Below the pieces are notes generated by a model. That model ran no database searches and was not told where the DNA came from. It worked only from the letters and a program-made list of their open reading frames with translations. Positions 33,229-61,769 of a stretch of DNA of 64,000 nucleotides are shown in pieces; within the stretch, counting starts at the first letter, position 1; each line of letters starts with the position of its first letter. The DNA is taken from the NCBI GenBank assembly GCA_963666285.1, contig OY762712.1, one strand, 5' to 3'. The stretch is from Sedimentisphaerales bacterium (GTDB taxonomy: Bacteria > Planctomycetota > Phycisphaerae > Sedimentisphaerales > SM23-30). The translations under genes were made by a program, and so were the position numbers.

Positions 33229-34172
33229 TTTCCATCCATGTGACTGACATTCGGATCAGCTTCCTTGCTATCCGATTTATCTATTTTAACTTGATTTATT
33301 TCTTCATGCAAGAGAAGATTTTCAGCTTCCCTTGCATTAATTTGCTGCGTTAGGTCTTCAATCTTACTTTCAAGTTGTGATTTTTCTAAGTCAATTTTGG
33401 ATAACTCAGTTTGCAATTGCTTTTTCTCTGCCTCAGTTGCCCTTTCTAATAGTTTGATCTTTTCCTCTCCATTTTTTGCTATTTGTTCTTTTTCCAATTT
33501 GAGACGTGATATTTCTTCAATATTATCTGTAATTGATTTTTCTGCCTGGTTTGCTCTTAATTGTTCTGTATTTGCTCTACCTGTCTCTATAATTTTACTA
33601 CTGTAAAGAAACCAAGATATTCCTATAGATACCGATATGATAAATAAAATTGAAGCTATATAGTAGTAGTTAAGTTTGCGACATTGTTTTTCTAGCTCTT
33701 GACATTCTTGTTCATATTGCCTAATTTCTTTTGTTTTGCTAGTTGCTAAAGCAGTTGTTTTCGCTAATGTTTCATTATCTACTTTAATGCTGTTTATAGT
33801 TCTTTGCAGCAATTCATTAACATCTTTCATATTAAGTGCTGGTTCAGTATTAGATGGTGGCTTATGAGCGTCACCGCCCTGCCCTTTCTCATAAGTGTCT
33901 TCAATATCGGTGTTTATACTGTGAGCGTTATCTTGAGCGTTATAAGAAACTGGATTTGGATTAGGTAAATCATTATCTGCTGCCACTATTCTTTTTTCTA
34001 ATAAAAACTCTCTGAGTTGTTCAATATCAAAGTATGTTATTTTTCCAACCTTAAAGCTCTCTGGGTCTCCCATACGTCTCCAGCGTCTTAAAGTGGCTTC
34101 GCTCACACCTAATATTGCACACCCTTCTTTTATGGTCTTGAATCGCTCTCTATCGATACTCATGTCGCTCAT
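33225..34172 (-). CDS. membrane-tethered MerR/excisionase-type HTH protein with a C-terminal coiled coil
   Basis: N-terminal KEGCAILGVSEATLRRWRRMG HTH. TM helix YYYIASILFIISVSIGISWFLY. About 125 aa of heptad-like charged sequence after the TM. Confidence 0.65.
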   Translation of the reverse strand: MSDMSIDRERFKTIKEGCAILGVSEATLRRWRRMGDPESFKVGKITYFDIEQLREFLLEKRIVAADNDLPNPNPVSYNAQDNAHSINTDIEDTYEKGQGGDAHKPPSNTEPALNMKDVNELLQRTINSIKVDNETLAKTTALATSKTKEIRQYEQECQELEKQCRKLNYYYIASILFIISVSIGISWFLYSSKIIETGRANTEQLRANQAEKSITDNIEEISRLKLEKEQIAKNGEEKIKLLERATEAEKKQLQTELSKIDLEKSQLESKIEDLTQQINAREAENLLLHEEINQVKIDKSDSKEADPNVSHMDGK

Positions 34173-40959: not shown

Positions 40960-41238
40960 ATGGGGTGTAATCGTAACACTGCAATTGTTTTGACAGCGTT
41001 AGCTGAAAAAACATGTTCAATTCAAGAACTTACAAAGTTAGTCGGTAATGTTTCCAGTGTCCGTTCAGCTATACACAGGCTGAGAAGATGGGGCTGGCAT
41101 ATTGTTATGTGTCAGTATTCTGTTGGTGTATGTGCATATTATATTGTCGATACCGATCAGAGGATAGCTGCCGGCAAATTATCAAAAGGCGATCTTAACC
41201 GTAAGATGATCTTGCCTTCCAGGAAGGGGGGTAAATAA
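40960..41238 (+). CDS. small winged-helix protein (excisionase/regulator candidate)
   Basis: 92 aa. CSIQELTKLVGNVSSVRSAIHRLRRWGW is HTH-like. Coupled 1 nt (TAATG) to the integrase. Confidence 0.5.
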   Translation: MGCNRNTAIVLTALAEKTCSIQELTKLVGNVSSVRSAIHRLRRWGWHIVMCQYSVGVCAYYIVDTDQRIAAGKLSKGDLNRKMILPSRKGGK

Positions 41239-42272
41239 TGAGAAAGCCTCAACTTCATCATTACAAAAAAAGATTTACTTTTCGCTGGGAAGATAAGTTA
41301 ACGGGAACAAACAGAAGTCGTGTTTTACCCAAAGGGATAGATCGTGAAGAAGCTGAAAGGAGACGAAATGATTTTTGTATCGATCTTGATAATGTAACAT
41401 GGGATCGATGGTGTGAAATTGATATTCAGACACACAGTAGCAAGGTGCGGGAAAGCTCAATAGATAGTATTGACAGAACGTACAGGCATATCTCAAGGCT
41501 ATTAGGTCCAGACTATCTAAGAGATATTGACTCTAATATGGTCTTGGAATATCGCCGTATCCGGTACGAGGAGGGATGCAAGCCTGGTACAATAAATACA
41601 GAACTTGCGGTAATACAGGCCGCATTTAACCGCGCAATAAAACGAGATGTTGTAAATTACAATCCAGTTGATAGCTCGATGAGGTGTAATGTTGATGAAA
41701 AACCAATATCAATTGTGTCGGATTATTATTATCAAATTTTATTAGAAGCTGCACCTACTTTTGACTGGGAACTTATTATAGCTATTGGATATCATGTCGG
41801 ATTGAGGATAGGGGAGATATTAGCATTAAACACCTGGGATATTAATATTGACCATTATGAACTTTATATAACAAATACCAAGGTACATAAACTTAAAAGC
41901 GGCAGAAACAGGGTTGTACCTATACCGCTACCGTTATATGGTTATCTCGTTAAACGGCTTAAAGAAGGTCCAAGAGGTAGGGTTATAGGTTCGGTAAGTA
42001 TGAAGCCCAATAAACATTGCAGCTATAATGTTAATAATGCCAGTCGGAACTTTGCCAGGATATGTGAAAAAGCCGGACTGGTAAATGAATTAGATAAGAA
42101 CGTGTACACGACTCATTCATTACGTAGAACCTGTATAACTGACTGGATCAGGAAAGGTTGTAGCGTTGAAGAAGTAAAGGAGATGGCCGGACATAAGTCC
42201 ATTGTCACAACTCTGAAGTATTATTGCCAGACTGCTGAAATAGAATCTGCCAAAAAGAAACTTGTGCGATAG
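41238..42272 (+). CDS. int: tyrosine recombinase / phage integrase
   Basis: GLRIGEILAL (Arg), HSLRRT (H-x-x-R), GHKSIVTTLKYY (His ... catalytic Tyr). 344 aa. Confidence 0.9.
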   Translation: MRKPQLHHYKKRFTFRWEDKLTGTNRSRVLPKGIDREEAERRRNDFCIDLDNVTWDRWCEIDIQTHSSKVRESSIDSIDRTYRHISRLLGPDYLRDIDSNMVLEYRRIRYEEGCKPGTINTELAVIQAAFNRAIKRDVVNYNPVDSSMRCNVDEKPISIVSDYYYQILLEAAPTFDWELIIAIGYHVGLRIGEILALNTWDINIDHYELYITNTKVHKLKSGRNRVVPIPLPLYGYLVKRLKEGPRGRVIGSVSMKPNKHCSYNVNNASRNFARICEKAGLVNELDKNVYTTHSLRRTCITDWIRKGCSVEEVKEMAGHKSIVTTLKYYCQTAEIESAKKKLVR

Positions 42273-42798: not shown

Positions 42799-45700
42799 TT
42801 ATTTAGAAGACTCTAATAACTGAGTCTTCATATACATTATATACAAATCCTTCTTAGCTTCAAGGATTTCCTTGAGAAGTTTCTTGTATTCCTTCTCAGG
42901 TATCTGGTCTTTGATTTCTTCGATGAAATTCTCTAGCTGAGTTAGCTGTAAAGCCATGATCTCAATAGTTGGATTCTGGCTATCAACTTTCCGCTTAGTA
43001 TCAATAAGATTTGAACGTGATAGCTTTCTGGTCACGATCTCATCAGATACAACCGGATCATGTTCTGTTGATGTAAGATCAAATACACTCATACTAGCGA
43101 TTGAAACCTCTGTTGTAACAGGTTCGACGTATGATGTGCTTTCAAGGCTCATTGTCATCGGTGAAGCCATAGCCATTGCAGCAACCATATCACTCATGGA
43201 ACTATTAGTTATATAGCAAGGTCGCCATAGCCAGTTATCAGCCAGGATTGAGAAATCATCCATATCAATGATATTGGCACTTGAACCGGTATCAGCCCAG
43301 TTATAATCTGGATTCCAGTCAGTTGGTCCATTTAGTAACCAGGTTGCTGCCATACCTGCAAATTCATACATATTAATTCTGCTGTCCAGATTAATATCGT
43401 ATATCGAGAATGTATCCCAGCATGAAATCTCATCAGCACCCATATCAACATCATCATCTTCTAACCTGTACGAACCGTCAATATCAAGCTCGTTGACTAT
43501 ATCCACAGCAGAGGTCAAACCAAGTTCTTTACAAGGTGATTCGATTGACAAATGAAGATCATAGAAGTCTGAATAATTAGGGTCATACGGATAAGCAAAT
43601 AGCGGATCACACTTGATATTACTGTTCGGGTCAGCTTCACATTCAAAAAGATTATTAGGGTCTAAATTTTGAATACAGTTATATGTTATATCTAATGGTC
43701 CGCTAATCTGGTTGTCATTTTTCCAGATGATATTGTTTGTAACTTTTACTTCACCATCAGCAGAAATACCATATCTATCATTTAGTGCTATTGTATTTCC
43801 CCTGATTTCATCAGAAGAATCAGCACCACTAAGATAAACACCGCCGTCATTTTTATGTATAAAACTATTCAAAATGGTAATGTCACCGTTGTTATCTGTG
43901 TGGATAGCACGGGAATCATTATTATAGATATTGCAATTGGCAATAGTAGCTGAAGAATTAGCGATATCAATACCATAGGTTCCACTATCTGTAATAGCAC
44001 AGAATGAAATCTCAGGGGCATTGCCTGTTGTGCTGGTATTGTCAATCTTAATTCCAGCCTGGCCACTGCCTTTTATGACAAAACCATTCAAAACAGTATC
44101 GTTACCAGTAATTGTTATTACGTTTGACTTATCAGCAGCACCATCTTCATCAGGATCGCCAGTCAGTATGGTTTTGTTCAAAACGATATTTCGCTGGTCC
44201 AAAGATGATTCATTACCTGCAAACCCTCCGTACATAGATAGTCCTTCATAGATAACAAAAGAGTCATCAGTTAAATCACAATATGATATTGGTGCATACG
44301 CGCCTGTAGCTACCCATATAGAGTCGTAATCGTAGTAGCTATCCTCGATAAACATCATTGCTTGGTTAATATCGGTGAATGCATTGCGCCAGGAAGTTCC
44401 CGATGTATAGCCTGTGGCATTCTGGTCCACATATACTACGCCTTGAACAGCACCGGTAGAGGTCCAATATCCTACCTCAAGATGATAGTGCCTTAAAACT
44501 CTATTCTGGTCGCTCTCATATTTAACGTGAAAATTGATTGATGTCCCAGGCTTTGCCAGTTCGCTAATGGTAAGAGTGAGTGTTTGGTTAACTACCGCTG
44601 GCATATCTCCGAGAGAAAAAGTATAGGCATGTAGCTTATCATCATAATTACCACTCATTGCTGTAGCAAAATCAATATTCATCTCAGGTGCGAGATATAA
44701 TTTAACGGTCAGGTTGGTGTCTGTGCCGCCAAAAGTGTCATTAACATTTATGTCTATTTCATCTCCGGGTAGAATGTCATAGTGAAAATCAGTATCATTT
44801 GGGTCTGTACTAAATCCACCTTGTGATAAATCAATTAGATTGTCCTCATTGTCATATACGAATAGATTGTTAGGGTCAATATTAGTAGGTTTGATTATAT
44901 CGAATCCTAATGGCATAAACTCAGCATACCAATCTAACGTAAAACCATAATAAACTGTGACTAAATCATCAGAATCTACCTCCACATCATAGTCATAATC
45001 GTAGGTACATCCAATGTCAACTCCTCCATTTGTTAGTTCAACGCTTTCCTTTATATCGAGTAAAGCTGGAAAAATATCATCTGCGGTGCTTCCACTATCA
45101 GCAGATAAGCCATTGGCAGAATTGTATAAATTAACAGTTGTATTATTAGTGTGTGAAAGTATGTATAATTTATCATCACCATTAAGCATATTAAGTAGCA
45201 TGTAGTTATCCAAGCTACCAAAACCACTGCCATCTTCCCCAGGGGTATATACCAATCTGTTGTTAGTGTTATAAACAGATACGGAGATATTATTGCTTGA
45301 GGCAACTTCATAATAATGACCGAAGTCTTGACGAGTGTCTGAATATTCGTACATTTTATGTTCGTAAACTTGTCCTTTATCTAAGGTAAAATCTAAAAAA
45401 CTATTTCCTTCCTGGGTTACAGTCACTTGTGTGTTATCTGTGTATCCAACAAAAACAAAGTATTTTTCGCTGCCATGAGAGGGGAAGTAAGTATAAAATT
45501 CCTGCCCGCTGAATGTTCCATTGCTTGCGGGGACATAGTATCCAGAATCTGTCATACAAAGTGCAGAAACCCCTTTGTTGGCGGTAATGCGTAACTTCTT
45601 TTCCCAAATTGAGTAAAAATCATCGGTGGTATTCCATTCCAGGTGTTCTCCTTTATTAATATAATTAGGATCAGATGGTCGCATGATAGATGAAAACTCT

Positions 45701-46185
45701 GGGTATCCGGGATTATTAGGGTCATCCTGGCCTGTATATTGACTAACTTCTATGTACGTTTCATCTTCATGGGCAAATACTACAAATTTGCCGCCAGCTT
45801 TTGGAAATGAGGTGTATAATTCTGTGCTTACACCTTTGTCATAAGGGTCTAAGGCGTAATACCCACTTATAGTGTTTATGTCGCCACCATCACCATCATC
45901 ACCATTTAGTAGCGTAAATCTACCATTTCCTGTAACTGTATGTACTTTCTTTTTCTCGGTGGAATTTGTGATATAGCGACCAGATTCTCCTTTCATCAAG
46001 GTGTCTGACCAAAGCAAGGTATTAGCTCTGTTTCGTATTTCCAAGTAATTGTTGTCTTCATAACTGAAGACTTCAAGACTGCCAAAGTTAATTACACTTG
46101 CTTGATAATCAGCCAATGCTAAATTGACCGTAAATAAGGTAAAAATAAGCGCAAATAATCCCCGTAGATTTGAATCTTTCATCAT
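42799..46185 (-). CDS. large secreted beta-helix surface protein with a dockerin-like C-terminal module
   Basis: 1128 aa. Signal peptide (LFALIFTLFTVNLALA). VVYVDQNATGYTSGTSWRNAFTDINQA ... YGGFAG cap motif followed by beta-helix rungs. The C-terminal module is shared with 49681.. and 57830... AAGGAG RBS. Confidence 0.8.
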   Translation of the reverse strand: MMKDSNLRGLFALIFTLFTVNLALADYQASVINFGSLEVFSYEDNNYLEIRNRANTLLWSDTLMKGESGRYITNSTEKKKVHTVTGNGRFTLLNGDDGDGGDINTISGYYALDPYDKGVSTELYTSFPKAGGKFVVFAHEDETYIEVSQYTGQDDPNNPGYPEFSSIMRPSDPNYINKGEHLEWNTTDDFYSIWEKKLRITANKGVSALCMTDSGYYVPASNGTFSGQEFYTYFPSHGSEKYFVFVGYTDNTQVTVTQEGNSFLDFTLDKGQVYEHKMYEYSDTRQDFGHYYEVASSNNISVSVYNTNNRLVYTPGEDGSGFGSLDNYMLLNMLNGDDKLYILSHTNNTTVNLYNSANGLSADSGSTADDIFPALLDIKESVELTNGGVDIGCTYDYDYDVEVDSDDLVTVYYGFTLDWYAEFMPLGFDIIKPTNIDPNNLFVYDNEDNLIDLSQGGFSTDPNDTDFHYDILPGDEIDINVNDTFGGTDTNLTVKLYLAPEMNIDFATAMSGNYDDKLHAYTFSLGDMPAVVNQTLTLTISELAKPGTSINFHVKYESDQNRVLRHYHLEVGYWTSTGAVQGVVYVDQNATGYTSGTSWRNAFTDINQAMMFIEDSYYDYDSIWVATGAYAPISYCDLTDDSFVIYEGLSMYGGFAGNESSLDQRNIVLNKTILTGDPDEDGAADKSNVITITGNDTVLNGFVIKGSGQAGIKIDNTSTTGNAPEISFCAITDSGTYGIDIANSSATIANCNIYNNDSRAIHTDNNGDITILNSFIHKNDGGVYLSGADSSDEIRGNTIALNDRYGISADGEVKVTNNIIWKNDNQISGPLDITYNCIQNLDPNNLFECEADPNSNIKCDPLFAYPYDPNYSDFYDLHLSIESPCKELGLTSAVDIVNELDIDGSYRLEDDDVDMGADEISCWDTFSIYDINLDSRINMYEFAGMAATWLLNGPTDWNPDYNWADTGSSANIIDMDDFSILADNWLWRPCYITNSSMSDMVAAMAMASPMTMSLESTSYVEPVTTEVSIASMSVFDLTSTEHDPVVSDEIVTRKLSRSNLIDTKRKVDSQNPTIEIMALQLTQLENFIEEIKDQIPEKEYKKLLKEILEAKKDLYIMYMKTQLLESSK

Positions 46186-46205: not shown

Positions 46206-46772
46206 TTATTTTCTTCTCTTTATGGTTAATAAACCGCCCAGGCTAAGCAAACATAGTGATATTGGTTCTGGAACAATTTCAATATTTGAAAAGTGATCTA
46301 CTCCTTGCGAGTAAGGTCGCAGTATATGGAAATCAAATTCAATTGATGTCCCATCGTCAAGAATACCCGAAATAGAACCTCTCCACTCATCGACTTCAGT
46401 TTGAAGATATGATAAAGCACCTAAGTCGGTTAAGCTTTGAAGGTCAAGATTTCCAATACCAACAGGAATATTACCCACCATAAAATCTGAACCAGAAAGT
46501 TGAATTAGAGCATCAGACCTAACAAATACGTGACCCAATATATTTCCACCAGATATTGTCATTATTGAGTCATTATCAATTTCTGAATAGTAATCAAAAT
46601 CAATAGTTCCCCCTAAAACAGTAGCTTTTGAATTATCTTTCATAAATACTTCAACATAACTATCTCCCGGATTTACAGTTAATGTTTCATCACCAGACAA
46701 GTCTATTATTGTTGCCTGCAATTGGGACGCAAAACCTAAAAACAACATTAACAATACAAATTTCATTTTCAT
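46206..46772 (-). CDS. small PEP-CTERM protein
   Basis: Signal peptide, x-S-x-L-x-I-x-GG-x-I repeats, C-terminal VPEPISLCLLSLGGLLTIKRRK. Confidence 0.85.
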   Translation of the reverse strand: MKMKFVLLMLFLGFASQLQATIIDLSGDETLTVNPGDSYVEVFMKDNSKATVLGGTIDFDYYSEIDNDSIMTISGGNILGHVFVRSDALIQLSGSDFMVGNIPVGIGNLDLQSLTDLGALSYLQTEVDEWRGSISGILDDGTSIEFDFHILRPYSQGVDHFSNIEIVPEPISLCLLSLGGLLTIKRRK

Positions 46773-46831
46773 ACCATATTCTCCTAAAAAATATCATTTA
46801 GTTTTCCCCGAAGCATTTCGATACTTCAGCG

Positions 46832-47602
46832 TTAGTTTATTTTTTTTATTGTTATTAGACTGCCAAAACCAAGTAAGCAGAGTGAAAATGGTTCTGGTAT
46901 AATTATTACGTTCATTGTATTAAAAAAACTATAAACTGAAGCAAGTCTGACATTAATGTTAATGTCATTTCCATCAGCTAAAGTTCCATTTAAGTCGCCT
47001 TCTAATATAAAATAATCGCCATATCTGTATGAGGTTAAAGCTCCTTTATCAACTAACATATCAAGATCAAGTTCTCCTAAATCAAGTGCGATTCCGCCAA
47101 GGCTAAAGTTATTTCCTGATAGTATTAAATGGGAGTTCCCACCGATAAAAAAATTGGATGATACATTTCCACCTTGTATGAGAAATTGTCCGTTTACTCC
47201 CATATTTAAATTACCACCTAATGTTCCGCTAAGCATAGTAGCGTGTCCAGCTAAGTGAGAATAGTTGTTAAGGTTAACTGTACCGCCATTTATTATCATA
47301 TTGCTAATTGAATCGATACTATCAACAATGCCGCCAGTAATGTTTAATATAGAATCATCATCAACTGTAACTTTTGAAACTCTTCCACCTGTAATATTGA
47401 TTTTAGAGGAATTGATTGCCATAATTGACACTGATTGGCAGTTTGCAATTGTTACGGTTGCTGAATCTCTTGTATAGATAGTACCAATATTTTCATCGGG
47501 AGAATCTATTAAAATGGAATCATTACCTGATAGAAACAATGATGCTTTTGATTGACATACTATACTACTAATAAATATTATGACTATAAATATTTTTTTC
47601 AT
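46832..47602 (-). CDS. small PEP-CTERM protein
   Basis: Signal peptide, many GG-containing short repeats, C-terminal IPEPFSLCLLGFGSLITIKKIN. Confidence 0.8.
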   Translation of the reverse strand: MKKIFIVIIFISSIVCQSKASLFLSGNDSILIDSPDENIGTIYTRDSATVTIANCQSVSIMAINSSKINITGGRVSKVTVDDDSILNITGGIVDSIDSISNMIINGGTVNLNNYSHLAGHATMLSGTLGGNLNMGVNGQFLIQGGNVSSNFFIGGNSHLILSGNNFSLGGIALDLGELDLDMLVDKGALTSYRYGDYFILEGDLNGTLADGNDININVRLASVYSFFNTMNVIIIPEPFSLCLLGFGSLITIKKIN

Positions 47603-48342
47603 AGATAAACCCTTGCTATGTTTTTCTTACGAACGATAATTCCACCCAGACTGAGAAGTAAAATTGAAATTGGTTCAGGAACAATAGTGAAGTCTATTTG
47701 GTCAATTAATCTATAGACATCACCATTGGCCCATTTAGTGTCAATCAATCTGATACTAAATACTGAATCGTCAGCCCAATAGCCACTTAAGATATTATTA
47801 TCCTCATCCCAATCCCAAGTCTTGCATAGAATATTGAAAGAAATTTTTTCATCTAATGGGACAAATTGGTTGTTGAGAATATCATTGATAGTACCGCCAG
47901 ATAAGATGGTTGAAGAATTACCTAAAACATACAGGGTGCTAGCTTTTCCTCCTGACATTGAAACAGTACTATATTCATCTGAAATTAAAGTGTACATTTT
48001 TCCACCATATACATTTATATAACTGGAACCATAAGCCCATACACTTGCACCAACTTGCCCACCACAAAAATCTAAGCTACTTGAATCGTGTATTTGAACA
48101 CTGTTTATACCGCTTGTGTTACGAATATATTTGTCTGTGCTGTTAATCTTTACATAACTATCCTGATATGCTTCTATTCTTTCTACTCCACCACCTTCAA
48201 CCAATAACGATTGATTGTTCAGCTTAAATATGTCGCTAGAATAACCACTTGAAATAGTATAATCAAAAGTGGAAGATAATACTGTGCTAGCACATACTAC
48301 CATTACGCATAAGACTATTCTAATCATAATGTTTTTCTCCAA
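47599..48342 (-). CDS. small PEP-CTERM protein
   Basis: Signal peptide, C-terminal VPEPISILLLSLGGIIVRKKN. 4-nt overlap with the next gene. Confidence 0.8.
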   Translation of the reverse strand: MEKNIMIRIVLCVMVVCASTVLSSTFDYTISSGYSSDIFKLNNQSLLVEGGGVERIEAYQDSYVKINSTDKYIRNTSGINSVQIHDSSSLDFCGGQVGASVWAYGSSYINVYGGKMYTLISDEYSTVSMSGGKASTLYVLGNSSTILSGGTINDILNNQFVPLDEKISFNILCKTWDWDEDNNILSGYWADDSVFSIRLIDTKWANGDVYRLIDQIDFTIVPEPISILLLSLGGIIVRKKNIARVYL

Positions 48343-48348
48343 GGAATA

Positions 48349-48377
48349 GGCTTCCAGTCCAAGTCGAACCGGAAGCC
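48349..48377 (-). promoter_or_regulatory. intercistronic stem-loop (copy 1, one mismatch)
   Basis: ggcttccag-N11-ccggaagcc, between the stop of 48388.. and the start of 47599..48342. Confidence 0.6.
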
Positions 48378-48387
48378 TTAGAATAAC

Positions 48388-49008
48388 TTATTTTTTTCTT
48401 CTGACAATTAAGCCACCAACACCCAATAAAACTAAAGAAATCGGTTCAGGGACAATAGTAAACTTGATATTATCAAGTACAGGGTCGTAACCTGACTGAT
48501 TTTCCAAATTGATAGAAAAAGTGTCATAGGAGCCATTACCATCATTGTCAACATCCCAAACGCCCGTGACTAAACTGCTGTTTGCTGTATATTCACGGCA
48601 GATAATTTCAATATGTGGTGGAAGTGGGTTAGGTAAATTAAGATTTTGATAGCTAAAAATCTTACTGATACTTCCACCTGATAAAGTTGCGGAAGCAATG
48701 CTATATATTCGCAAATTGCCAATCTCACCTCCAGAAACTTCAAGTACACTACTATCATTTAATAGAATTGAAGCTATCCCTCCTACATTCACTTGCAGAG
48801 GTGCAGTGTTTTGGATTTCTATGGTACTAAAATTTTGAGCATCAATACGATACGCGCCACCACCAGCAACTAATAAAGAATCATTATTTTCTATTAGTGT
48901 TACTCCATTTCTATATTCACCGTCAGAGATTACATAAGCAGCAGCATTAGCAAAGCAGGCAAACAGCAGCAATAAACATAACATCTTTTCCATAATAAGA
49001 TTCTCCAT
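48388..49008 (-). CDS. small PEP-CTERM protein (tandem paralog A)
   Basis: C-terminal VPEPISLVLLGVGGLIVRRKK. The likely true start is the MEKMLCLLLLF Met at 48993, by comparison with paralog B. Confidence 0.85.
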   Translation of the reverse strand: MENLIMEKMLCLLLLFACFANAAAYVISDGEYRNGVTLIENNDSLLVAGGGAYRIDAQNFSTIEIQNTAPLQVNVGGIASILLNDSSVLEVSGGEIGNLRIYSIASATLSGGSISKIFSYQNLNLPNPLPPHIEIICREYTANSSLVTGVWDVDNDGNGSYDTFSINLENQSGYDPVLDNIKFTIVPEPISLVLLGVGGLIVRRKK

Positions 49009-49013
49009 AAATA

Positions 49014-49042
49014 GGCTTCCAGTCCAAGTCGAACTGGAAGCC
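49014..49042 (-). promoter_or_regulatory. intercistronic stem-loop (copy 2, perfect 9 bp)
   Basis: ggcttccag-tccaagtcgaa-ctggaagcc, between the paralogs. Confidence 0.6.
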
Positions 49043-49052
49043 TAGAAATAAC

Positions 49053-49658
49053 TTATCTTTTTCTTCTGACAACTAAGCCACCAACACCTAATAGAACTAA
49101 AGAAATCGGTTCAGGGACAATAGTGAACTTTATATTGTCAAGTACAGGGTCGTAACCTGACTGATTTTCCAAATTGATAGAAAAAGTGTCATAGAAACCA
49201 TCGTTATCATTATCAACGTCCCAAATACCTGTGACTAAACTGCTGTTTGCAGTATATTCACGACAGATGATTTCAATATGTGGTGGAAGTGGGTTTGGTA
49301 AATTAAGTCTTTGATAACTAAAAATTTTACTGATACTTCCACCTGATAAAGTAGTGGTACTGTGGCTATATGTACGTAGATGCCCAACTTCTCCACCAAA
49401 AATTTCAAGTGAACTCCAACCATTTAATGAGATATCAGCTATACCACCAATATCAACTTGTAGAGGTGCTGTATTTTGAACTACAATTGAACTATAGTCA
49501 GAAGCATCTATCTGATAAGCGCCACCACCTGTAACCAAAAGAGTATCATAGTTTTCTATTTTCAATAATCCGTGGTCATAATCACCATCTGAAATTACAT
49601 AAGCGGCAGCATTAGCAAAGCTTGCAAACAGCAGCAATAAACATAACATCTTTTTCAT
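49053..49658 (-). CDS. small PEP-CTERM protein (tandem paralog B)
   Basis: C-terminal VPEPISLVLLGVGGLVVRRKR. The C-terminal half is nearly identical to paralog A. Confidence 0.85.
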   Translation of the reverse strand: MKKMLCLLLLFASFANAAAYVISDGDYDHGLLKIENYDTLLVTGGGAYQIDASDYSSIVVQNTAPLQVDIGGIADISLNGWSSLEIFGGEVGHLRTYSHSTTTLSGGSISKIFSYQRLNLPNPLPPHIEIICREYTANSSLVTGIWDVDNDNDGFYDTFSINLENQSGYDPVLDNIKFTIVPEPISLVLLGVGGLVVRRKR

Positions 49659-49680: not shown

Positions 49681-52647
49681 TTATTTTGTTTTATATTTCT
49701 TGGTCTTTTTATCTATAGAATAGTAATCATCATACATTTCCCAGAGAATTTCTTCCAGTTTTTCTATCTCTGCATCCACATCATCAATTGCCAGTTCAGA
49801 AGTTGCATTGTACTTGGATTCTTCCATTAAATCCATTATCTGATATATACCTAATACCAACATTGCAAGATTTTCCCGTTCTGCCTGTTCATCAATGCTT
49901 ACCTCTTCAACACTAGCTAAACTTACAGTTGATTCAAGTGGCATTGACATAGGGGCCATCATCATTGTTTCTCCGCCAAGTGGAGCTGCAATATTATCAA
50001 ATCTACTGTCCAGGCTGTCTTTCCAACAGGCCGTCCAAAGCCATTCATCTGTGAATAGCTCAAAATCTTGTATGTCTATGGTGTAGTCAACATACAAATT
50101 ACAAGTTTCATTCCAGTTATCTACAAAATTCGGGTCATAGTTATTTGGGTCAGCCACATAACCCGGAGTATCTGGGCTATTAGTCAGCCACGCAGCAGAC
50201 ATCAAAGAAAATTCTTTTAGATTGACTATGCCATCGTTATTCCAGTCCCTTACATTATAGATATCATCTTCGCTTAGGTCGCTGTCACAAGTATTTACTT
50301 CATCAGCTCCAATATCTAACCAGTAATCATCTATTCTGGCTTCGTTATCTATATCTACAGAGCCGATTTCTGCACTGGTTAAGTCTGAATCACCTCTATC
50401 TATCAGCAAAGAATCATGAGCCAGGTGAATATTATTAGGATCTCCAAGATATGCAAACATTGGCTTACCTGTGATATTATAAAAATAATCAGGGTCAAGA
50501 TAGTTTAACCCGTTAGGGTCATTAACCGAGTCTTGAATACAGCAGTATTCAGTATATTCTATGCCATACATCTGCTCATTATCATCATTGTTATAGTATA
50601 GGATACATCCATTAACATCAGGCTCTGAAGCGTTTGGGTCTGATTGAATGTATGAAATTCCCATATTATAGTTATAAGCAATTGTGTTATGATACAAAAC
50701 AGGTGGTTCATTTGGGTCAATAATTCTTATACCATAGGATGATTCATCACCATTTTTAGTAATAACACTGTTTTTTAGAGTTAGCGAAGAATTATCAGCA
50801 AAAATACCATTTTCACCGTTAAAAGATGAAAAACAATGTGATATTACTATATTTTTTTCAACTCCCATATGGTGAATACCGTTTTTCTCATTATACCTAA
50901 CCTTGTTCCAATTAAGATTTACATTTCCATTTTCAAAAAATAGACCATATTGCTGAGATTTCAAAATCTGACAATTATTGACTTCACAATCAGCATTTTC
51001 GCCATAAACGACATAGACATTTGCATTTTCAACAACAAATCCATCGAGAATACAGTCATCGCCCATTGAAACTATAGTGTTATTTAAAGTTGTATCATTT
51101 ATTTTTCCGTTTAACACTGTAATGTATTTGTCAGGGTTTCTATCTTCAAAAGCACAGCCGCCACGTTTGAAACCACCATACATTTCAGTGCCATATGGTA
51201 ATTCAAAGTCATTCATTATAAAATTACCAGGGCTGTAACGGCCTTCAGCTACATATATCTTATAGCCAGAAGCCGAACAAACTGCTTCTCTTGCTCTTGT
51301 CAGGGCTTTTTGAAGGTCTGTATAGGCATGTTCCCATGATGTTCCTGTATTAAAACCTGTGGCGTTTTTATCAACCAGAATTAAATCAGCATCTTCAGTT
51401 TCCCAGCAGCAAACAGGAGTGTCTGCTGTTGCTACCCCAATTAAAACGTCTCCGTTATAGATATATGCTTCATTATGGAGGAACATCCCGGCTTCTGCGT
51501 GTTCATTTACTGTTACAGTTAATGAAACGCAACCTGTGATAATATTTGGATCAATAGTTCCAATATGCCACGTATAAGTATGGTTCAGGATATCGTAGTT
51601 TGGGTCAGGGTTAAACGGGTCAACAGCAAAATCGTAATCTACCCCATAAGGCAAGACATCTACTATTGTAACATCATCAAAAATTCTATTGCTGACATTG
51701 CTCCAACAAATAGTATATTCGATATCATCATCAGGATCACAACAGTCAGTACCTGTACCATCATTATCTATTATAAGGTCTTCTTTTGATAGTTCTAGTT
51801 GTTCATAAGGATTAATATCTGCTGCAATTGTTATGGCATATTCAATGTCTGTCGTATCGCTAATGTATTTTATCTCAAAAGGAGAGAAAGAGTCTGATGT
51901 ATTTACTACATCAAATGAATTATGATAAGATTGAACCCAATTGGACATATGCTCCGGTTCTAACCCATCATAAACACCGCTATTATAGGCTTCTGTTGTG
52001 AAGTCTGAAACTTCCTCTCCGCCTCCTGAAACGACATCTGTTACTACTCCCCAAGTAGTAGGAATCCATTGAAAGCCTTGTGAGTCACCTAGGGCAATTA
52101 AACCGGTTCCTGAGCCATTTAACACGTATTCAATTGCTTGGGAGAAGAATATGTCTGCCGGTTGAAATGCTCCATCATCATGGTTTCCAGCCGCTTTAAC
52201 AGTGTGATAATCTGCGTCATGGCCTGAGAGCAGGACTCTCCCGGTAATACCATAATCAATTATAGTATTAGTCAGGCCGCTCGTATTTCCGCCAGAATTC
52301 CATCCGACGATAAGAATATCATTGTTATTTAGATCATAAGCTGTAACTGGATTGGAGCTACTCCTATAAGTGAAATTTTCACCAAGGTACTTATTTTCTC
52401 CAAACAGTTCTTTCATAGCAGCAACAATATCAGTTAAATCTGAGCTTGCACCTGTAGTTCCGCAATCATAAATAAGAAAATTGTAGTTATCAGGATTAAA
52501 ACCAAGAGGGACAGAGCTACTTGAGCCGACTGATAATGTTTGTATAGGTAAATCTGCCCATACACTTGGCGTTAGTATTGCCAATAATCCTATAACCAAA
52601 TACCATGTAATAACCTTTTTTAACTTAAACCTTCTTTTCCACATCAT
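49681..52647 (-). CDS. large secreted DUF11-like plus beta-helix surface protein with a dockerin-like C-terminal module (start revised)
   Basis: The likely start is MMWKRRFKLKK at 52647 (AAAGGA upstream, then a signal peptide). DUF11-like segment (VTIVDVLPYGVDY...TWHIGTI...LTVTVN). LILVDKNATGFNTGTSWEHAYTDLQKAL...YGGF cap and beta-helix rungs. Confidence 0.8.
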   Translation of the reverse strand: MMWKRRFKLKKVITWYLVIGLLAILTPSVWADLPIQTLSVGSSSSVPLGFNPDNYNFLIYDCGTTGASSDLTDIVAAMKELFGENKYLGENFTYRSSSNPVTAYDLNNNDILIVGWNSGGNTSGLTNTIIDYGITGRVLLSGHDADYHTVKAAGNHDDGAFQPADIFFSQAIEYVLNGSGTGLIALGDSQGFQWIPTTWGVVTDVVSGGGEEVSDFTTEAYNSGVYDGLEPEHMSNWVQSYHNSFDVVNTSDSFSPFEIKYISDTTDIEYAITIAADINPYEQLELSKEDLIIDNDGTGTDCCDPDDDIEYTICWSNVSNRIFDDVTIVDVLPYGVDYDFAVDPFNPDPNYDILNHTYTWHIGTIDPNIITGCVSLTVTVNEHAEAGMFLHNEAYIYNGDVLIGVATADTPVCCWETEDADLILVDKNATGFNTGTSWEHAYTDLQKALTRAREAVCSASGYKIYVAEGRYSPGNFIMNDFELPYGTEMYGGFKRGGCAFEDRNPDKYITVLNGKINDTTLNNTIVSMGDDCILDGFVVENANVYVVYGENADCEVNNCQILKSQQYGLFFENGNVNLNWNKVRYNEKNGIHHMGVEKNIVISHCFSSFNGENGIFADNSSLTLKNSVITKNGDESSYGIRIIDPNEPPVLYHNTIAYNYNMGISYIQSDPNASEPDVNGCILYYNNDDNEQMYGIEYTEYCCIQDSVNDPNGLNYLDPDYFYNITGKPMFAYLGDPNNIHLAHDSLLIDRGDSDLTSAEIGSVDIDNEARIDDYWLDIGADEVNTCDSDLSEDDIYNVRDWNNDGIVNLKEFSLMSAAWLTNSPDTPGYVADPNNYDPNFVDNWNETCNLYVDYTIDIQDFELFTDEWLWTACWKDSLDSRFDNIAAPLGGETMMMAPMSMPLESTVSLASVEEVSIDEQAERENLAMLVLGIYQIMDLMEESKYNATSELAIDDVDAEIEKLEEILWEMYDDYYSIDKKTKKYKTK

Positions 52648-57122: not shown

Positions 57123-57749
57123 TTACACTCTTTTTTTCAATAACAAACCACCCAACCCAAGTAGCAACATTGATGCTGGTTCGGGTACAACATCAACATG
57201 CGTCCATGTTTTAGTGATAAATGGAGCATCTATATCGATAAATTTAATGGAAAAATCATCGCCATTTTTCCATTTTCCTGTAATACCTGTATAGGCATCT
57301 TCTTCACCAACCCAGGACCAACTGTTTGGCATACAATCAATAGTGATTGTCTTACCGGCAGATTCATATTGGGCTGTTTTAAGTAGATTTATCTGTCCGC
57401 CATTGAGTAAAACAGTAGAATTTTTTAACGCATAAATATGGTTAACAATTCCGCCAGAGACAGTTAAAGTACTAACTTCAGCACTACTAACAGTAATGTC
57501 AGATATCCCGCTCTCATTGCTGATGAGAGGCATAGATGTAGCAACAACTTCCACATGTGCAATATCGTAAATTTCTATATCATTTGCACCACCACCATTA
57601 ATTGTTAAAACACTATTGTCTCTAACTTTGACTAACCCGCCATATTCGTTTTCTGACAATAATCCATCTTCTGCATAATTGTGAGAGTCAAAGATACTTG
57701 CCAGGGAAGTTGATACACAAACCATCAATAACACCGCTATTATTTTCAT
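57123..57749 (-). CDS. small PEP-CTERM protein
   Basis: Signal peptide, GG repeats, C-terminal VPEPASMLLLGLGGLLLKKRV. Confidence 0.85.
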   Translation of the reverse strand: MKIIAVLLMVCVSTSLASIFDSHNYAEDGLLSENEYGGLVKVRDNSVLTINGGGANDIEIYDIAHVEVVATSMPLISNESGISDITVSSAEVSTLTVSGGIVNHIYALKNSTVLLNGGQINLLKTAQYESAGKTITIDCMPNSWSWVGEEDAYTGITGKWKNGDDFSIKFIDIDAPFITKTWTHVDVVPEPASMLLLGLGGLLLKKRV

Positions 57750-57829: not shown

Positions 57830-60508
57830 TTATTGTAAAGATTCCTTTATTTTGGCCAGTTCATCATCGAAAAAGACCAGTATTTCCTGCAAATCTTTCT
57901 TATCTTTACGTTTAAGATCATCGTTTAACATATCTGAGACACAATCCTGAAGATAGTAAATATCCCTGAGTATTATGGCAACCTCGTTATTTGTCATGGT
58001 TTCATACATATTTAGAACTTCTTTTTCAGCGTCCAGATCGAGATTAGAAACTGAAACAGTTCTGGCAACAGACTCAACTGTCATCAGAGAATCACCTGCG
58101 GGAACAGACATCATTACCATTTCACCACCTGTAACAGCCATATAATTATCATACCAACAGGCTTTCCACAGCCACGGAACATCACTGACAAATGCTGCCA
58201 GATCAGCCAGGTCAATACTGTATTGGCTGCTGCCGGTATCATCTAAATTGCATATTTCGTTCCAGTTATCATCTGAATTCGGATCAGCAAGAGCTGCGGG
58301 GCTGTTAGGCTCATTTGTAAGCCATGCTCCGGCTATTATTGAAAACTCTTCAAGGTTAACAATACCATCTGCACTCCAATCGTATTCATTAGCAAAATCA
58401 TCTTCGGTATAATCACCATCACAGGAATACAGTTCATCTGCACCTCTGTCAACATTAGTGCCTGCGACACGAACCTCATTATCATAGTCAACCTGACCGG
58501 TATAATCCAAACTTGGATTGCCACTATCTTTACATAAAGAGTCATGGGCCAGGTGATAATTTTCCGGATCAGGCGCACCCAGAGGGTCAACTGTATAGGC
58601 GAATTTTGGGATATCATTGATATTATTATTTAGCTCTGCACAGTTTTGTACACAACTGTATGATACATAGGTATTCGGATCAAAGCCCGCCATCTGTCTT
58701 GCATTATTGTTATTATAGTAAACAATGCAATTCTGTATATCAGGGTAATCCAGTGCCATACTATTCGGATCACTGCTTTCATTATCCTCAAAATATATTC
58801 CCCTTGATTTATTATTTGAGACAGTAAGATTGTGCAATACGGGACGACTAAATGGGTTTTCTATGTGAATACCATCTTTTCCTTCTTCTGCTAGATCACT
58901 TTCGGAGATAATGGAATTTTTAATAACAGGTGTGGAGTTTAGACTAAACACACCATATTTATCGTTTCTCATAATCCAGGAATTAGAAACATTTAGATTT
59001 TGCCCAATACTCTCATGGTAAATACCATCCTCACTATTATTTTTTACCAAACAAGATTTGACAGTCATATTACCATATTCTGCATAAATACCATAACGTA
59101 ATCCATCAGTAATTTCGCAGTTATTAACTTCAAAATCAACACCATAGCCTACAATATTATAGTCAACACCATAATTTACCGTTACGCCGTCAAGTAGTGA
59201 TTCATGGCCCATTTCAACTACGGAATAGGCAAGGCTGGCATCCAGCCAACCGCTTAGAATAGTCTCATATTTCTTTGGATTTCTATATGCGAAATCACAG
59301 CCGCCGGTTGGGAATCCACCGTAAATTTCTGTTTCATCTGGTAGTTCAAAAGTTTCGGTTGCACTTATGCCAGGCAGGTATGTTCCCTGGGCTATATATA
59401 TTGTAAACGGTCCGGTACAGGTAGAGAATCTTGCTCTATGTAGAGCCTTTTTCAGACCATATTTTGTATTATAAGCATTTTGCCAGTCAACACCGGTATT
59501 ATTGCCTGTAGCATTCAAATCTACAAATAGGGTGTTTGGATAATCTCCCCAGCAGCAAATTGGCGTTTCTTCGATAGCTCGTGCTATAATACCGTAATCA
59601 TTAGGATCATTTGAATCACCGCTATAAAGCTCAGCTATATTTGTCTGGTCAAAACCCGGTTCTGCGTGTTCATTTACAACTACTTCCAACTCTACACAAC
59701 CTGAATCGCCTGGCCCAATATCGCCTAAATACCAATAATAGCTGTGCGAATTTGGATCGTAGGCTGGGTCTGGCGGTATTGGTATCATGTTAGGGTCAAC
59801 GGTCCAGTCTCCTCCCGGATATGTCATACCATATGGGAGAAGGTCTATTATATAACAATCCGGCAGTGTTACATCATCATTATTCTCATAACAAATTGTA
59901 TAAACTACTGTGTCATCTAATGTTGCACAGCTTCCTTCTTCGACATCATCTTCTTTGGTAAAAGATAAATCAAAGAGAGTGCTTTGCAGCATAATAACAT
60001 CATGTTCATTGTAGCCGGTGTTACTTATCGTAAGAGTTCCAGCCTCAACAACTCGATGGATAGACCAGTTTAATATATCATTCTGGTCATTTGTTCTTAC
60101 CCTGATATACGGGCAGTTAGGATCAACCACTATAGTTCCAGTAAAATCATAATCTCCTTCCGGAGGTGTTTCACCATGTGTAGCGTCCTCATCCCAGACA
60201 ATCATTATATCATTCTCGTTAAGTTCAACTGGCACTGGATTTGAACCTTGCTTTATAGTATATACTTGATAAGAAGGGACTATACAGCCATCTATGTCAA
60301 CATACAGATACAATTCAGTATGAGCATCTGTACTGGGCCTGTTAAATACCTCTACCCAGCAACTACTGTTAGGGTCTGCTCCTTCAGAAAGTCCAATGTA
60401 ACTTTCTGTTTGTGTTGTAAAAGACATTGTTTCTGCAACTTGTGCAGATACGACACCTGTCAGCAACATTGATAAAATAATACAGAAACCGATAAAATAC
60501 TTTTTCAT
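57830..60508 (-). CDS. large secreted DUF11-like plus beta-helix surface protein with a dockerin-like C-terminal module (start revised)
   Basis: MKKYFIGFCIILSMLLTGVVSA start at 60508, with AAGGAG 7 nt upstream. Paralog of 49681..52647 from the DUF11-like segment onward. Confidence 0.8.
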   Translation of the reverse strand: MKKYFIGFCIILSMLLTGVVSAQVAETMSFTTQTESYIGLSEGADPNSSCWVEVFNRPSTDAHTELYLYVDIDGCIVPSYQVYTIKQGSNPVPVELNENDIMIVWDEDATHGETPPEGDYDFTGTIVVDPNCPYIRVRTNDQNDILNWSIHRVVEAGTLTISNTGYNEHDVIMLQSTLFDLSFTKEDDVEEGSCATLDDTVVYTICYENNDDVTLPDCYIIDLLPYGMTYPGGDWTVDPNMIPIPPDPAYDPNSHSYYWYLGDIGPGDSGCVELEVVVNEHAEPGFDQTNIAELYSGDSNDPNDYGIIARAIEETPICCWGDYPNTLFVDLNATGNNTGVDWQNAYNTKYGLKKALHRARFSTCTGPFTIYIAQGTYLPGISATETFELPDETEIYGGFPTGGCDFAYRNPKKYETILSGWLDASLAYSVVEMGHESLLDGVTVNYGVDYNIVGYGVDFEVNNCEITDGLRYGIYAEYGNMTVKSCLVKNNSEDGIYHESIGQNLNVSNSWIMRNDKYGVFSLNSTPVIKNSIISESDLAEEGKDGIHIENPFSRPVLHNLTVSNNKSRGIYFEDNESSDPNSMALDYPDIQNCIVYYNNNNARQMAGFDPNTYVSYSCVQNCAELNNNINDIPKFAYTVDPLGAPDPENYHLAHDSLCKDSGNPSLDYTGQVDYDNEVRVAGTNVDRGADELYSCDGDYTEDDFANEYDWSADGIVNLEEFSIIAGAWLTNEPNSPAALADPNSDDNWNEICNLDDTGSSQYSIDLADLAAFVSDVPWLWKACWYDNYMAVTGGEMVMMSVPAGDSLMTVESVARTVSVSNLDLDAEKEVLNMYETMTNNEVAIILRDIYYLQDCVSDMLNDDLKRKDKKDLQEILVFFDDELAKIKESLQ

Positions 60509-61580: not shown

Positions 61581-61769
61581 TCTAGTGAAACTGGTGTTGA
61601 GGTTGGCTTATACAACCCATTTTTTATGCTTTTTTGAAAAGTATTGTTTTGCTAGTTATGGGACGTGATTTTGATTGTTTAATATAATATTCTATAATTC
61701 ATGTTTATGTTGCCAGCGAATAGGTCTTAAAATAATTGCTGAGATTATTTTGAACAATATCAGAAAGGA

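Follow-up and report, generated by a model that had tools for sequence, protein, structure and literature searches.

The three large proteins A, B and C encoded in the window (the whole 64-kb stretch of Sedimentisphaerales DNA analysed here) end in a common tail composed of a dockerin/EF-hand-type module (D), a Met-rich linker and a helical hairpin (H). This tail defines a family of hundreds of secreted beta-helix proteins from anaerobic Planctomycetota. In our favoured reading, to which we give a probability of about 0.35, the tail would be a two-part protein-protein docking handle on Sec-exported beta-helix surface proteins and not a sorting signal.

Three paralogues with a common C-terminal tail

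An earlier note had placed the tails at positions 42799-43425 (A), 49681-50290 (B) and 57830-58425 (C). It described five elements in the same order: a Cys followed by a dockerin- or EF-hand-like loop (i), a second loop unit (ii), WLWxxC (iii), a Met-rich stretch (iv) and an acidic helical tail (v). Translations and an alignment confirmed the five elements and their order in all three proteins at these positions. Across all six reading frames of the window, the pattern W-L-W-x-x-C-[WYF] was found three times and no more, with one copy in each protein. In BLASTP comparisons, the segment from GADE to WLWxxC gave E values of 4e-12 for A/B, 2e-10 for A/C and 8e-33 for B/C. For the part after WLWxxC, the values were 2e-5 for B/C and 0.005 for A/B, the latter over the Met-rich piece only, and A and C gave no match. 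Therefore, elements iv and v are clear in B and C and weak in A. Judged by sequence comparison, the similarity of the three tails is real and above chance, and formal alignment did not reduce it to the dockerin-like part.

Table 1. Positions in the window of proteins A, B and C, their tail modules and the neighbouring PEP-CTERM genes
Feature	Position	Strand	Residues	Description
Protein A	42799..46185	(-)	1128 aa	Signal peptide, head without known family, beta-helix, tail (ORF, translation)
A, D module	43213..43422	(-)	aa 922-991	Divergent; Cys922 to WLWRPCY
A, Met/Ser-rich linker	42988..43212	(-)	aa 992-1066	Longer than the B and C linkers; contains MSDMVAAMAMASPMTMSLEST
A, H-like hairpin	42802..42987	(-)		Divergent, weak; H1 HMM 4.0 bits; K-x-L-x-E-I-L common to A, B and C
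Protein B	49681..52647	(-)	988 aa	From ATG at 52647; signal peptide, head, DUF11, beta-helix, tail
B, D module	50023..50289	(-)	aa 787-875	BLASTP, D HMM
B, Met-rich linker	49909..50022	(-)	aa 876-913	Contains GGETMMMAPMSMPLEST
B, H module, type H1	49684..49908	(-)	aa 914-988	H1 HMM 23.9 bits, B being among the seed sequences of this HMM
Protein C	57830..60508	(-)	892 aa	From ATG at 60508; signal peptide, head, DUF11, beta-helix, tail
C, D module	58154..58423	(-)	aa 696-785	Canonical EF loop DWSADGIVNLEEF; ends WLWKACW
C, Met-rich linker	58022..58153	(-)	aa 786-829	Predicted disordered
C, H module, type H1 hairpin	57833..58021	(-)	aa 830-892	H1 HMM 41 bits
Small PEP-CTERM protein gene	57123..57749	(-)		Directly downstream of C, 80-nt gap; PF07589 E 3e-5; TIGR02595
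Five tandem small PEP-CTERM genes	46206..49658	(-)		Between B and A; 49053-49658, 48388-49008, 47599-48342, 46832-47602, 46206-46772

The proteins had been called otherwise divergent, which they are not. Upstream of the tail, identity was 40% over 517 aa for B and C (BLASTP E 4e-101) and 28% over 445 aa for A and B (E 6e-28). A Pfam search found Beta_helix (PF13229) in all three (E 2.4e-13 for A), and DUF11 scored slightly under the cut-off in B and C. Sec-type signal peptides were evident in the translated N termini, that of A being MMKDSNLRGLFALIFTLFTVNLALA followed by DY. The mechanical ORF of B begins at a TTG at 52692; the ATG at 52647 was chosen as the start, and this yields a signal peptide. 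On their sequences, A, B and C are paralogues that share DUF11 and the beta-helix (about 450 to 520 aa) besides the tail. The difference among them is confined to the N-terminal heads of 200 to 500 aa; across the family, the same stalk and tail also carry RCC1, subtilase and PA14 heads.

The D module, the linker and the H hairpin

Elements i to iii make up D, a dockerin/EF-hand-type module. The EF-hand loop pattern D-x-[DNS]-x-[DNS]-G-x-[ILV]-x-x-x-[DE] occurs as DWSADGIVNLEE in C and DWNNDGIVNLKE in B. Loop 1 of these two proteins has the canonical 12-residue calcium-loop form, and that of A lacks the Gly; loop 2 is lengthened by 4 residues in C and deviates from the canonical residues in B. 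The D module of A scored 24.9 bits (E 4.9e-9) against a D HMM built without A. In a PDB profile search, the EF loop profile matched calmodulin loops (E 4e-6), and the AF2 model of the C tail has a helix after each loop (tail-model residues 31-43 and 79-88). Dockerin_1 (PF00404) gave no match with the whole proteins A, B and C at E<=0.1 or with their tails at E<=10. Relatives of the three had sub-threshold Pfam EF-hand matches, and a short D copy in one relative (P0040) passed Dockerin_1 with 31.8 bits against a cut-off of 22.9. Foldseek with the AF2 model of P0005, a protein with two D and two H modules, returned 2b59_B, 3kcp_A, 5g5d_B, 6kgf_D and 5m0y_B over 53 to 59 columns at an rmsd of about 2.6 Å, all with E>1. 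These entries include several solved dockerins, with weak scores; no dockerin was among the PDB matches of the C-tail model.

WLWxxC had been regarded as a separate element of no nameable kind. It is instead the C-terminal end of D, where it is invariant. We assign it to D because it is repeated along with D in multi-module proteins and because its Cys co-occurs with the Cys before EF loop 1 (both in 180 modules, neither in about 6). A disulfide between these two residues, Cys696 and Cys784 in C, probably clasps the ends of D.

In place of the 80- to 100-aa acidic helical tail reported to follow, AF2 gives a disordered linker of about 40 aa and then a two-helix hairpin of 55 to 60 aa. In the model of the C tail, the pLDDT was below 50 at tail residues 101-135, corresponding to the linker, and 91 to 97 in the two hairpin helices (residues 152-174 and 179-203). 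The linker is 23 to 75 aa long and contains 11.6% Met versus 1.4% in the body, an 8-fold enrichment. Its conservation is one of composition, and a conserved cleavage motif is absent. An internal translation start, with GGGE and the Met cluster supplying a Shine-Dalgarno sequence and an ATG for a free hairpin peptide, was rejected because the linker Gly codons are mostly GGC or GGT and an SD-like word lies 4 to 12 nt before an in-frame ATG in only 9 of 44 linkers.

H is confidently predicted by modelling to be an acidic two-helix hairpin of 55 to 60 aa that belongs to an undescribed family, and two types of it, H1 and H2, were distinguished. Sequence and fold searches found no relative of H in Pfam, NCBIfam or the PDB, and the AF2 models of the C tail and of P0005 had no significant PDB fold match. 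In support of the earlier note, elements iv and v matched no family in these three databases. A word-indexed homologue search with an H-only alignment returned just tail fragments of 46 to 110 aa.

Both helices of H bear a wide conserved hydrophobic face. This a/d/e stripe would be exposed in a lone hairpin, and the hairpins at the ends of two or three chains might accordingly form a four- or six-helix bundle that dimerises or trimerises the stalks, while D would act on its own as a dockerin for some other protein, a cohesin scaffoldin. The best fold matches were dimeric helical-hairpin domains, such as the DHp domain of histidine kinases, and cohesin scaffoldins have been reported as encoded by Limihaloglobus, a related family member (PMC11557425). 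Such oligomerization is nevertheless unlikely, since none of these fold matches was significant and since it explains neither why hairpins and D modules are equal in number nor why extra hairpins stand in tandem.

Matched D and H numbers and PEP-CTERM neighbours

At E<=1e-30, a profile of the tail retrieved no fewer than 470 clusters made at 50% identity, and its genomic matches came only from Sedimentisphaerales or other Phycisphaerae. The top 150 matches were mostly proteins of 850 to 1280 aa aligned to their very C terminus, and the stretch after WLWxxC was 85 to 125 aa long in 36 of the first 39 matches. A word-indexed homologue search with a second alignment gave 16 matches. Elements iv and v thus proved to be conserved at the extreme C terminus of a large family, and the tails themselves gave no Pfam or NCBIfam match at lenient thresholds.

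The numbers of D and H modules per protein were (1,1) in 149 proteins, (2,2) in 6 and (3,3) in 3. A lone (2,3) protein was N-terminally truncated, with part of a third D still present. Among multi-module proteins, D and H were equal in number in 10 of 10, and having several D modules was associated with having several H modules (Fisher test, p = 5e-16). The order was invariably all D modules and then all H modules, with the Met-rich linker always just before the last H and with linkers of 0 to 7 aa between internal hairpins. In the AF2 model of P0005, the pLDDT was at least 76 from the second D across a 16-aa linker into the first H; its pTM, 0.41, is the value that a rigid body made of some 155 of the 388 residues would give. 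The pTM for the 1:1 tail of C was 0.40, and therefore no confident D-H packing was obtained. Covariation between D and H was not found by mean-field DCA of 182 D-H pairs (of the 80 strongest couplings, 4 joined the two modules, versus 51% expected by chance), and the hairpin type, H1 or H2, was not predicted from the D sequence in a nearest-neighbour test.

Under the docking reading, D would fold around calcium after export, with the Cys-Cys disulfide clasping its two ends. D and H would then act as matched 1:1 pairs, each hairpin most likely binding one dockerin-type module, in keeping with the wide hydrophobic face on both hairpin helices. Binding could occur in cis, with the hairpin as a lid or stabiliser, as AF2 hints for the internal pair with the short linker, or in trans, with the last hairpin reaching on its long flexible tether the D of a neighbouring molecule. 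Such pairs would keep the beta-helix proteins together in an assembly at the cell surface, and the co-encoded exosortase-sorted PEP-CTERM protein would be its likely covalent anchor or a matrix component. Against the docking reading stand the missing D-H covariation, the low-confidence packing in the C tail, the absence of Dockerin_1 matches in A, B and C, the non-canonical loop 2 of B and C, and the neighbour divergence and gene numbers described below. More speculatively, and with considerable doubt on our part, H could be a new cognate ligand of dockerin-type modules that provides cohesin-independent coupling with balanced valency, encoded within a single polypeptide, in a self-assembling Sedimentisphaerales surface mesh, the long Met-rich tether chaining together secreted beta-helix proteins with different heads.

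The earlier note had suggested a targeting, anchoring or pro-domain role. Anchoring or docking stays the best reading, whereas a targeting signal and a pro-domain are weakened by the internal hairpins, by the equal counts of hairpins and D modules and by the N-terminal Sec-type signal peptides. In type I secretion substrates, calcium-binding motifs lie just upstream of an acidic helical C terminus. The tail resembles this arrangement, H is at the extreme C terminus of all complete members (extra hairpins being internal in multi-module proteins), and the Met-rich linker with the last H is constant even when modules are multiplied. It is quite improbable, however, that this segment and the terminal amphipathic hairpin are a secretion or sorting signal, cleaved or uncleaved, for an outer-membrane export machine. 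Internal hairpins matched to the D number argue against it, as do the Sec-type signal peptides and conserved Cys pairs, unlike type I substrates. No transporter or sortase gene was conserved beside the tail genes, and no transporter gene was present in the window region or at related loci. The tails of A, B and C also lacked matches to PEP-CTERM, LPXTG, T9SS-CTD, PPC and S74 chaperone domains in Pfam and NCBIfam at lenient thresholds, and to HemolysinCabind in Pfam.

There is also a slim chance that H is a pro-domain or intramolecular chaperone. It would assist the folding of D or the beta-helix, or keep D masked up to export, and would afterwards be removed by a cut in the Met-rich linker. 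A disordered, protease-accessible linker immediately before a well-folded terminal module would fit this, and the 1:1 ratio would suit one mask per dockerin. However, the linker has no conserved cleavage motif, the surroundings of the genes have no conserved protease, H shows the degree of conservation of a functional domain, and the 0- to 7-aa linkers between internal hairpins leave no room for processing.

The small genes between B and A and downstream of C have counterparts after nearly every tail gene. By an automatic rule, a PEP-CTERM gene lay downstream of 36 of 43 tail-bearing ORFs, and 5 of the 7 misses were contig ends or failures of the rule. Across Sedimentisphaerales genomes, the neighbour is a protein of about 200 aa encoded on the same strand after a gap of about 50 to 90 nt, and TIGR02595 matched 18 of 19 members. 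All five tandem products in the window end in [IV][VI]PEP[IF]S followed by a hydrophobic stretch and basic residues, and two of the five had Pfam PEP-CTERM matches slightly under the gathering cut-off.

This very strong synteny with a genuine PEP-CTERM protein, whose mature domain of about 155 aa has the size of a cohesin, raises another possibility: D, H or both might bind the globular part of the neighbour as a cohesin stand-in, without being partners of each other. Tail-only proteins (P0002, P0003, P0021 and others) are read as gene remnants or duplicated 3' ends because they lack a signal peptide and start inside the beta-helix cap, and the persistence of tail and PEP-CTERM gene together in remnants fits such binding. 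We nevertheless hold it to be rather unlikely. The divergence of the neighbour tracks the beta-helix body (Mantel, r = 0.80), and after correction for the body no correlation between neighbour and tail is left (partial Mantel). Each neighbour subtype is seen with H1 as well as with H2, and at related loci the count of PEP-CTERM genes downstream does not follow the D count. Profile searches found no cohesin or other known-family signal in the neighbour beyond PEP-CTERM, and no cohesin was found adjoining the tail genes. The equality of D and H numbers would also be left unexplained.

Relation to known systems and genomic setting

D resembles the type I dockerins (PF00404) of cellulosomal enzymes in being a C-terminal module of secreted proteins with what may be two calcium-loop-plus-helix segments, in its canonical loop 1 (D-x-[NS]-x-D-G-x-V-N-x-x-E-F) and in having its ends probably tied together, the intramolecular clasp being a recognised dockerin feature (PMC3821032). 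It differs in the 10- to 45-aa D/P/N-rich insertion between the loops and the often non-canonical loop 2, in a clasp that is apparently a Cys-Cys pair beside the invariant WLW, and in being always trailed by a Met-rich linker and a hairpin, in a planctomycete host with PEP-CTERM sorting. The X-module-dockerin pairs of types II and III likewise combine a dockerin with one fixed accessory module at the C terminus of a chain. Their X module, however, is an Ig-like beta domain that precedes the dockerin in the chain and packs rigidly against it, whereas the accessory module here is an alpha-helical hairpin on a flexible tether, C-terminal to D, and multiple copies are arranged as all D and then all H. 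With EF-hand pairs such as calmodulin lobes, S100 and centrin, the likeness is limited to the loop sequence, with no wider sequence or fold relationship, although the principle proposed here, calcium-dependent clasping of a helix, would be analogous. D is extracytoplasmic with predicted disulfides, and its proposed target is a hairpin in the same polypeptide.

The tail shares with C-terminal sorting signals (PEP-CTERM/exosortase, LPXTG, GlyGly-CTERM, T9SS CTD and T1SS) a strictly C-terminal position on differing cargo heads. Unlike them, it lacks a transmembrane segment, a signature motif and a basic cluster, and its roughly 200 aa are built of modules that can also be internal. The tails of A, B and C end in the acidic hairpin; the PEP-CTERM signal sits on the small neighbouring proteins. 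RTX-type substrates of type I secretion have no N-terminal signal peptide and carry GGxGxD nonapeptide repeats, with ABC, MFP and TolC genes nearby, in contrast to A, B and C, which have signal peptides and no nearby transporter genes.

Non-cellulosomal bacteria, Planctomycetota among them, commonly have dockerin-like modules, and few of the partners of these modules have been identified. The tail family offers a testable clue to such partners, namely, one hairpin of an undescribed family per dockerin-type module. If the hairpin is a dockerin ligand, the pair would represent a new cohesin-free assembly principle and a compact, calcium-switchable pair of tags (about 60 to 90 aa each) for protein engineering. 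The fixed PEP-CTERM pairing gives an inroad to surface organisation by exosortase-sorted proteins in anaerobic polysaccharide-degrading Phycisphaerae. At the least, thousands of metagenomic proteins now called hypothetical could be annotated with two new domain models, one for the long-insert dockerin and one for the H hairpin.

We also considered whether A, B and C are genes of an adjacent prophage. This was rejected: homologous loci sit among ordinary chromosomal genes, including che genes, GH97 and NADH dehydrogenase.

The common tail of three paralogous proteins

The tails of about 200 aa that end the three large proteins A, B and C were compared by translation and alignment, and the five elements recognized in the earlier note (i and ii, EF-hand-like; iii, WLWxxC; iv, Met rich; v, acidic and helical) indeed occurred in identical order in all three. 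The pattern W-L-W-x-x-C-[WYF] had only three matches across the six frames of the window, one each in A, B and C. Pairwise BLASTP of the segment from GADE to WLWxxC gave E values of 4e-12 (A/B), 2e-10 (A/C) and 8e-33 (B/C); for the segment after WLWxxC, the values were 2e-5 (B/C) and 0.005 (A/B), and no match was found between A and C. Therefore, the tail resemblance among the three proteins is not due to chance. They had also been described as otherwise divergent, which proved wrong: upstream of the tail, BLASTP aligned B with C at 40% identity over 517 aa (E 4e-101) and A with B at 28% over 445 aa (E 6e-28). In Pfam, a right-handed beta-helix (PF13229) was common to A, B and C, and DUF11 matches slightly under the cut-off were found in B and C. 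Each N terminus, read from the ATG start proposed in that note, had a Sec-type signal peptide. Judged from their sequences, A, B and C are paralogues with differences confined to the N-terminal heads.

Features of the window and of related loci (rows beginning with L, coordinates within the locus)
Feature	Coordinates	Strand	Remarks
Prophage-like block	1-42700
Giant ORF	2-9919	minus	at least 3306 aa, past window start; weak GP88 match
SU10-type portal	28186-30555
HTH proteins	31900-34172
Tyrosine integrase	41238-42272	+
Protein A	42799-46185	minus
Five tandem PEP-CTERM genes	46206-49658		paralogous, 188-256 aa; downstream of B, up to A start
Protein B	49681-52647	minus
FGE-sulfatase (formylglycine-generating enzyme-like) protein	54882-55748	+	PF03781 E 2e-17; ends in own PEP-CTERM signal, PF07589 E 1e-4
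Protein C	57830-60508	minus
Large ORF	61743-64000	+	past window end; signal peptide; GLUG motifs E 5e-21
L004, recurrent arrangement	3956-6876
L006, recurrent arrangement	7470-8833
L011, recurrent arrangement	5932-7209
L026, recurrent arrangement	7268-8501
L029/L030, recurrent arrangement
L001-L003, recurrent arrangement

Architecture and distribution of the tail

No Pfam or NCBIfam model matched the tails of A, B and C, even at E<=10. The tail of C was modeled by AlphaFold2 on a 35-sequence alignment. Its first part, predicted with moderate confidence (pLDDT 55-85), had one helix behind each calcium loop and its two ends joined by short strand pairing; residues 101-135, coinciding with the Met-rich element, were disordered (pLDDT <50); and the end formed a very confident helix-turn-helix hairpin (residues 152-174 and 179-203 of the tail, pLDDT 91-97). 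When a profile of the tail was compared with PDB sequences, 'DwnaDGiVnleEF' was the only stretch to match, and it did so to calmodulin EF-hand loops (E 4e-6). PDB fold searches with the models of the C tail and of P0005, a homologue with two copies of each module, returned nothing significant, the search with P0005 giving a series of weak matches to solved dockerins. Another homologue, P0040, carries the first module in a short copy that scored above the Pfam Dockerin_1 cut-off (31.8 versus 22.9 bits). Based on the predicted regions, the EF-hand and dockerin matches and the P0040 score, we divided the tail into a dockerin/EF-hand-type module comprising elements i, ii and iii (D), a linker, which is element iv, and a helical hairpin (H), which is the ordered part of element v. 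WLWxxC is not an element of its own, as had been thought, but part of D, and it is copied along with D in multi-module proteins.

The Cys of WLWxxC and a Cys ahead of loop 1 occurred together in 180 modules, and about 6 modules lacked the two, apparent exceptions being truncations or misassigned residues. Dockerins have an 'intramolecular clasp' (PMC3821032), and the co-occurrence of the two residues points to a disulfide form of this clasp in D. The linkers were 23-75 aa long (median, 37-38) and contained 11.6% Met versus 1.4% in the body; at least three Met were found in 81% of 182 linkers. The hairpins fell into two sequence types, H1 (n=91) and H2 (n=91), with a wide conserved hydrophobic stripe along both helices. 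Those of B and C were H1, and A ended in a weak, divergent H1-like hairpin.

We searched 1.84 billion representative proteins with a profile that spanned the tail and the preceding ~60 residues, which form the end of the beta-helix cap. Matches numbered 12,556 at E<=1e-3, 3,247 at 1e-10 and 470 at 1e-30. The best 150 matches were mostly 850-1280 aa long, aligned over the whole profile and ended a few residues from the C terminus. Heads varied among the tail-bearing relatives (e.g., RCC1 repeats, subtilase, PA14), and 'hypothetical protein' was the only database name of the tail proteins. When genomes were scanned, one per species, 30 loci were found, all from Planctomycetota: Sedimentisphaerales, Anaerohalosphaeraceae and other Phycisphaerae MAGs (some labeled Pirellulales), plus one isolate. 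No description of the D-linker-H tail was found in the literature searched. As far as searched, the hairpin, the Met-rich tether and the copy number rule reported below are undescribed in libraries and literature; word-indexed protein searches gave few, length-biased matches, and an H beyond the tail family could escape them. P0001 and P0002, the proteins most closely related to B and C, lie on the same 6.15-Mb contig (NCBI/ENA) and were called as truncated proteins (378 and 227 aa). Giants of 2300-7700 aa (P0041, P0044-P0046, P0053, P0058 and others) had 6-12 copies of the beta-helix C-terminal cap, corresponding to the first ~60-80 profile positions alone, and neither D nor H, so that in other proteins the cap forms a repeat unit by itself.

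Balanced numbers of D and H

HMMs of D, H1 and H2 were built, and the modules were counted in 180 available sequences. We found (nD,nH) to be (1,1) in 149 proteins, (2,2) in six and (3,3) in three, and no complete protein among the 180 had unequal numbers (Fisher p = 5e-16). The single (2,3) protein was N-terminally truncated, with the end of a third D still present. The (1,0) and (0,1) cases were truncated or frame-shifted fragments, dockerin-only proteins from outside the tail family (P0037-39), or protein A, whose divergent hairpin was missed by the H models. Every D lay ahead of every H. In multi-module proteins, the linker from the D array to the first H was rich in Pro, Gln and Glu with 0-1 Met, inner hairpins were separated by 0-7 aa, and a Met-rich linker (3-8 Met) directly preceded the last hairpin in 10/10 cases. 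The order D-H-D-H, expected from tandem duplication of a D-H unit, was never seen; its absence, with the balanced D^nH^n pattern, speaks for selection to keep D and H as functional 1:1 pairs.

In the AlphaFold2 model of P0005, the pLDDT was at least 76 from D2 across a 16-aa linker into the first hairpin, and the pTM of 0.41 fitted a rigid body of ~155 of the 388 residues, hinting that the inner D-H pair may pack together. For C, with its 1:1 tail, no D-H packing was predicted (pTM 0.40). DCA of 182 D-H pairs gave couplings almost solely within modules, and hairpin type was unrelated to D or to body similarity. Such absent within-protein covariation is compatible with, although not positive evidence for, a 'common handle' for all paralogues of a genome, as in cellulosomal dockerins.

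We favor, with a probability of roughly 0.35, the tail being a paired docking handle. D would be a calcium-dependent, disulfide-clasped dockerin-type module acting 1:1 with the hairpin; the two would most likely bind each other, in cis where the linker is short, and either in cis or in trans where the terminal hairpin sits on its Met-rich tether. The exported beta-helix proteins would be held in an assembly on the surface, along with the small, exosortase-sorted PEP-CTERM protein encoded downstream. Judged entirely from sequence patterns, the tail would function as a dockerin-based attachment system does, and its first module is dockerin-like. However, the D copies of the window miss the Dockerin_1 model and no cohesin was in evidence, so the tail was not filed as a plain dockerin member. 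That D serves a separate cohesin while the hairpins drive oligomerization is unlikely. Of the C-terminal targeting, anchoring or pro-domain role proposed in the earlier note, docking or anchoring survives as the preferred reading. An export or sorting signal is quite unlikely and a cleaved pro-domain slightly more so: N-terminal signal peptides are already present, hairpins are also internal, D and H are balanced, and no conserved machinery gene lies nearby.

PEP-CTERM neighbors and genomic context

A gene for a 208-aa PEP-CTERM protein lies 80 nt downstream of C, and B is followed by the five-gene array, in which 49053-49658 and 48388-49008 are near-duplicates. Only A has no such downstream gene; the integrase and prophage-like block begin there. 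At related loci, a PEP-CTERM ORF started within ~400 nt in 36 of 43 tail-bearing ORFs, typically after 50-90 nt; among the seven without a detected neighbor, three lay at the end of a contig, and in two the gene exists but escaped the automatic rule. TIGR02595 matched 18 of 19 neighbor proteins, showing a genuine PEP-CTERM domain. Their globular part (~155 aa, rich in GG-containing repeats) had no known relatives in our searches; the ~20-aa repeats of the window array proteins suggest a short beta-solenoid. By Mantel test, neighbor divergence tracked the beta-helix body (r = 0.80). It was also correlated with the hairpin (0.45), but no longer once the body was controlled for. The count of downstream PEP-CTERM genes did not match nD. 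Binding of the tail to this neighbor is a rather doubtful alternative.

Many loci had short ORFs of cap end, D and H alone, or of linker and H alone, without a signal peptide and each again followed by a PEP-CTERM gene; we take them to be remnants, or 3' ends that have been duplicated. The order of full-length gene, PEP-CTERM gene, short cap end-D-H ORF and PEP-CTERM gene recurred (see the table), at L004 as near-identical tandem repeats of ~1.4 kb. The short cap end-D-H units could be remnants or 3'-end exchange cassettes, and frequent recombination fits, since H1 and H2 assort freely relative to D and body. At L038-L040 (4851-5955), a Met-rich linker and H2 hairpin alone, without D or body, preceded a PEP-CTERM gene, flanked by sigma-54 activator and NADH dehydrogenase genes; this protein was present on 18 contigs from several samples.

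The product of 61743-64000 is a further secreted surface protein and resembles M26 IgA1 metallo-endopeptidase in the N-terminal region of the latter. The prophage-like block had no tRNA and contained a long operon on the minus strand, most of which had no Pfam matches. Its GC content was 0.41-0.47 up to 32 kb and then mostly 0.33-0.40, and ~100-500 nt separated its end from the stop codon of A.
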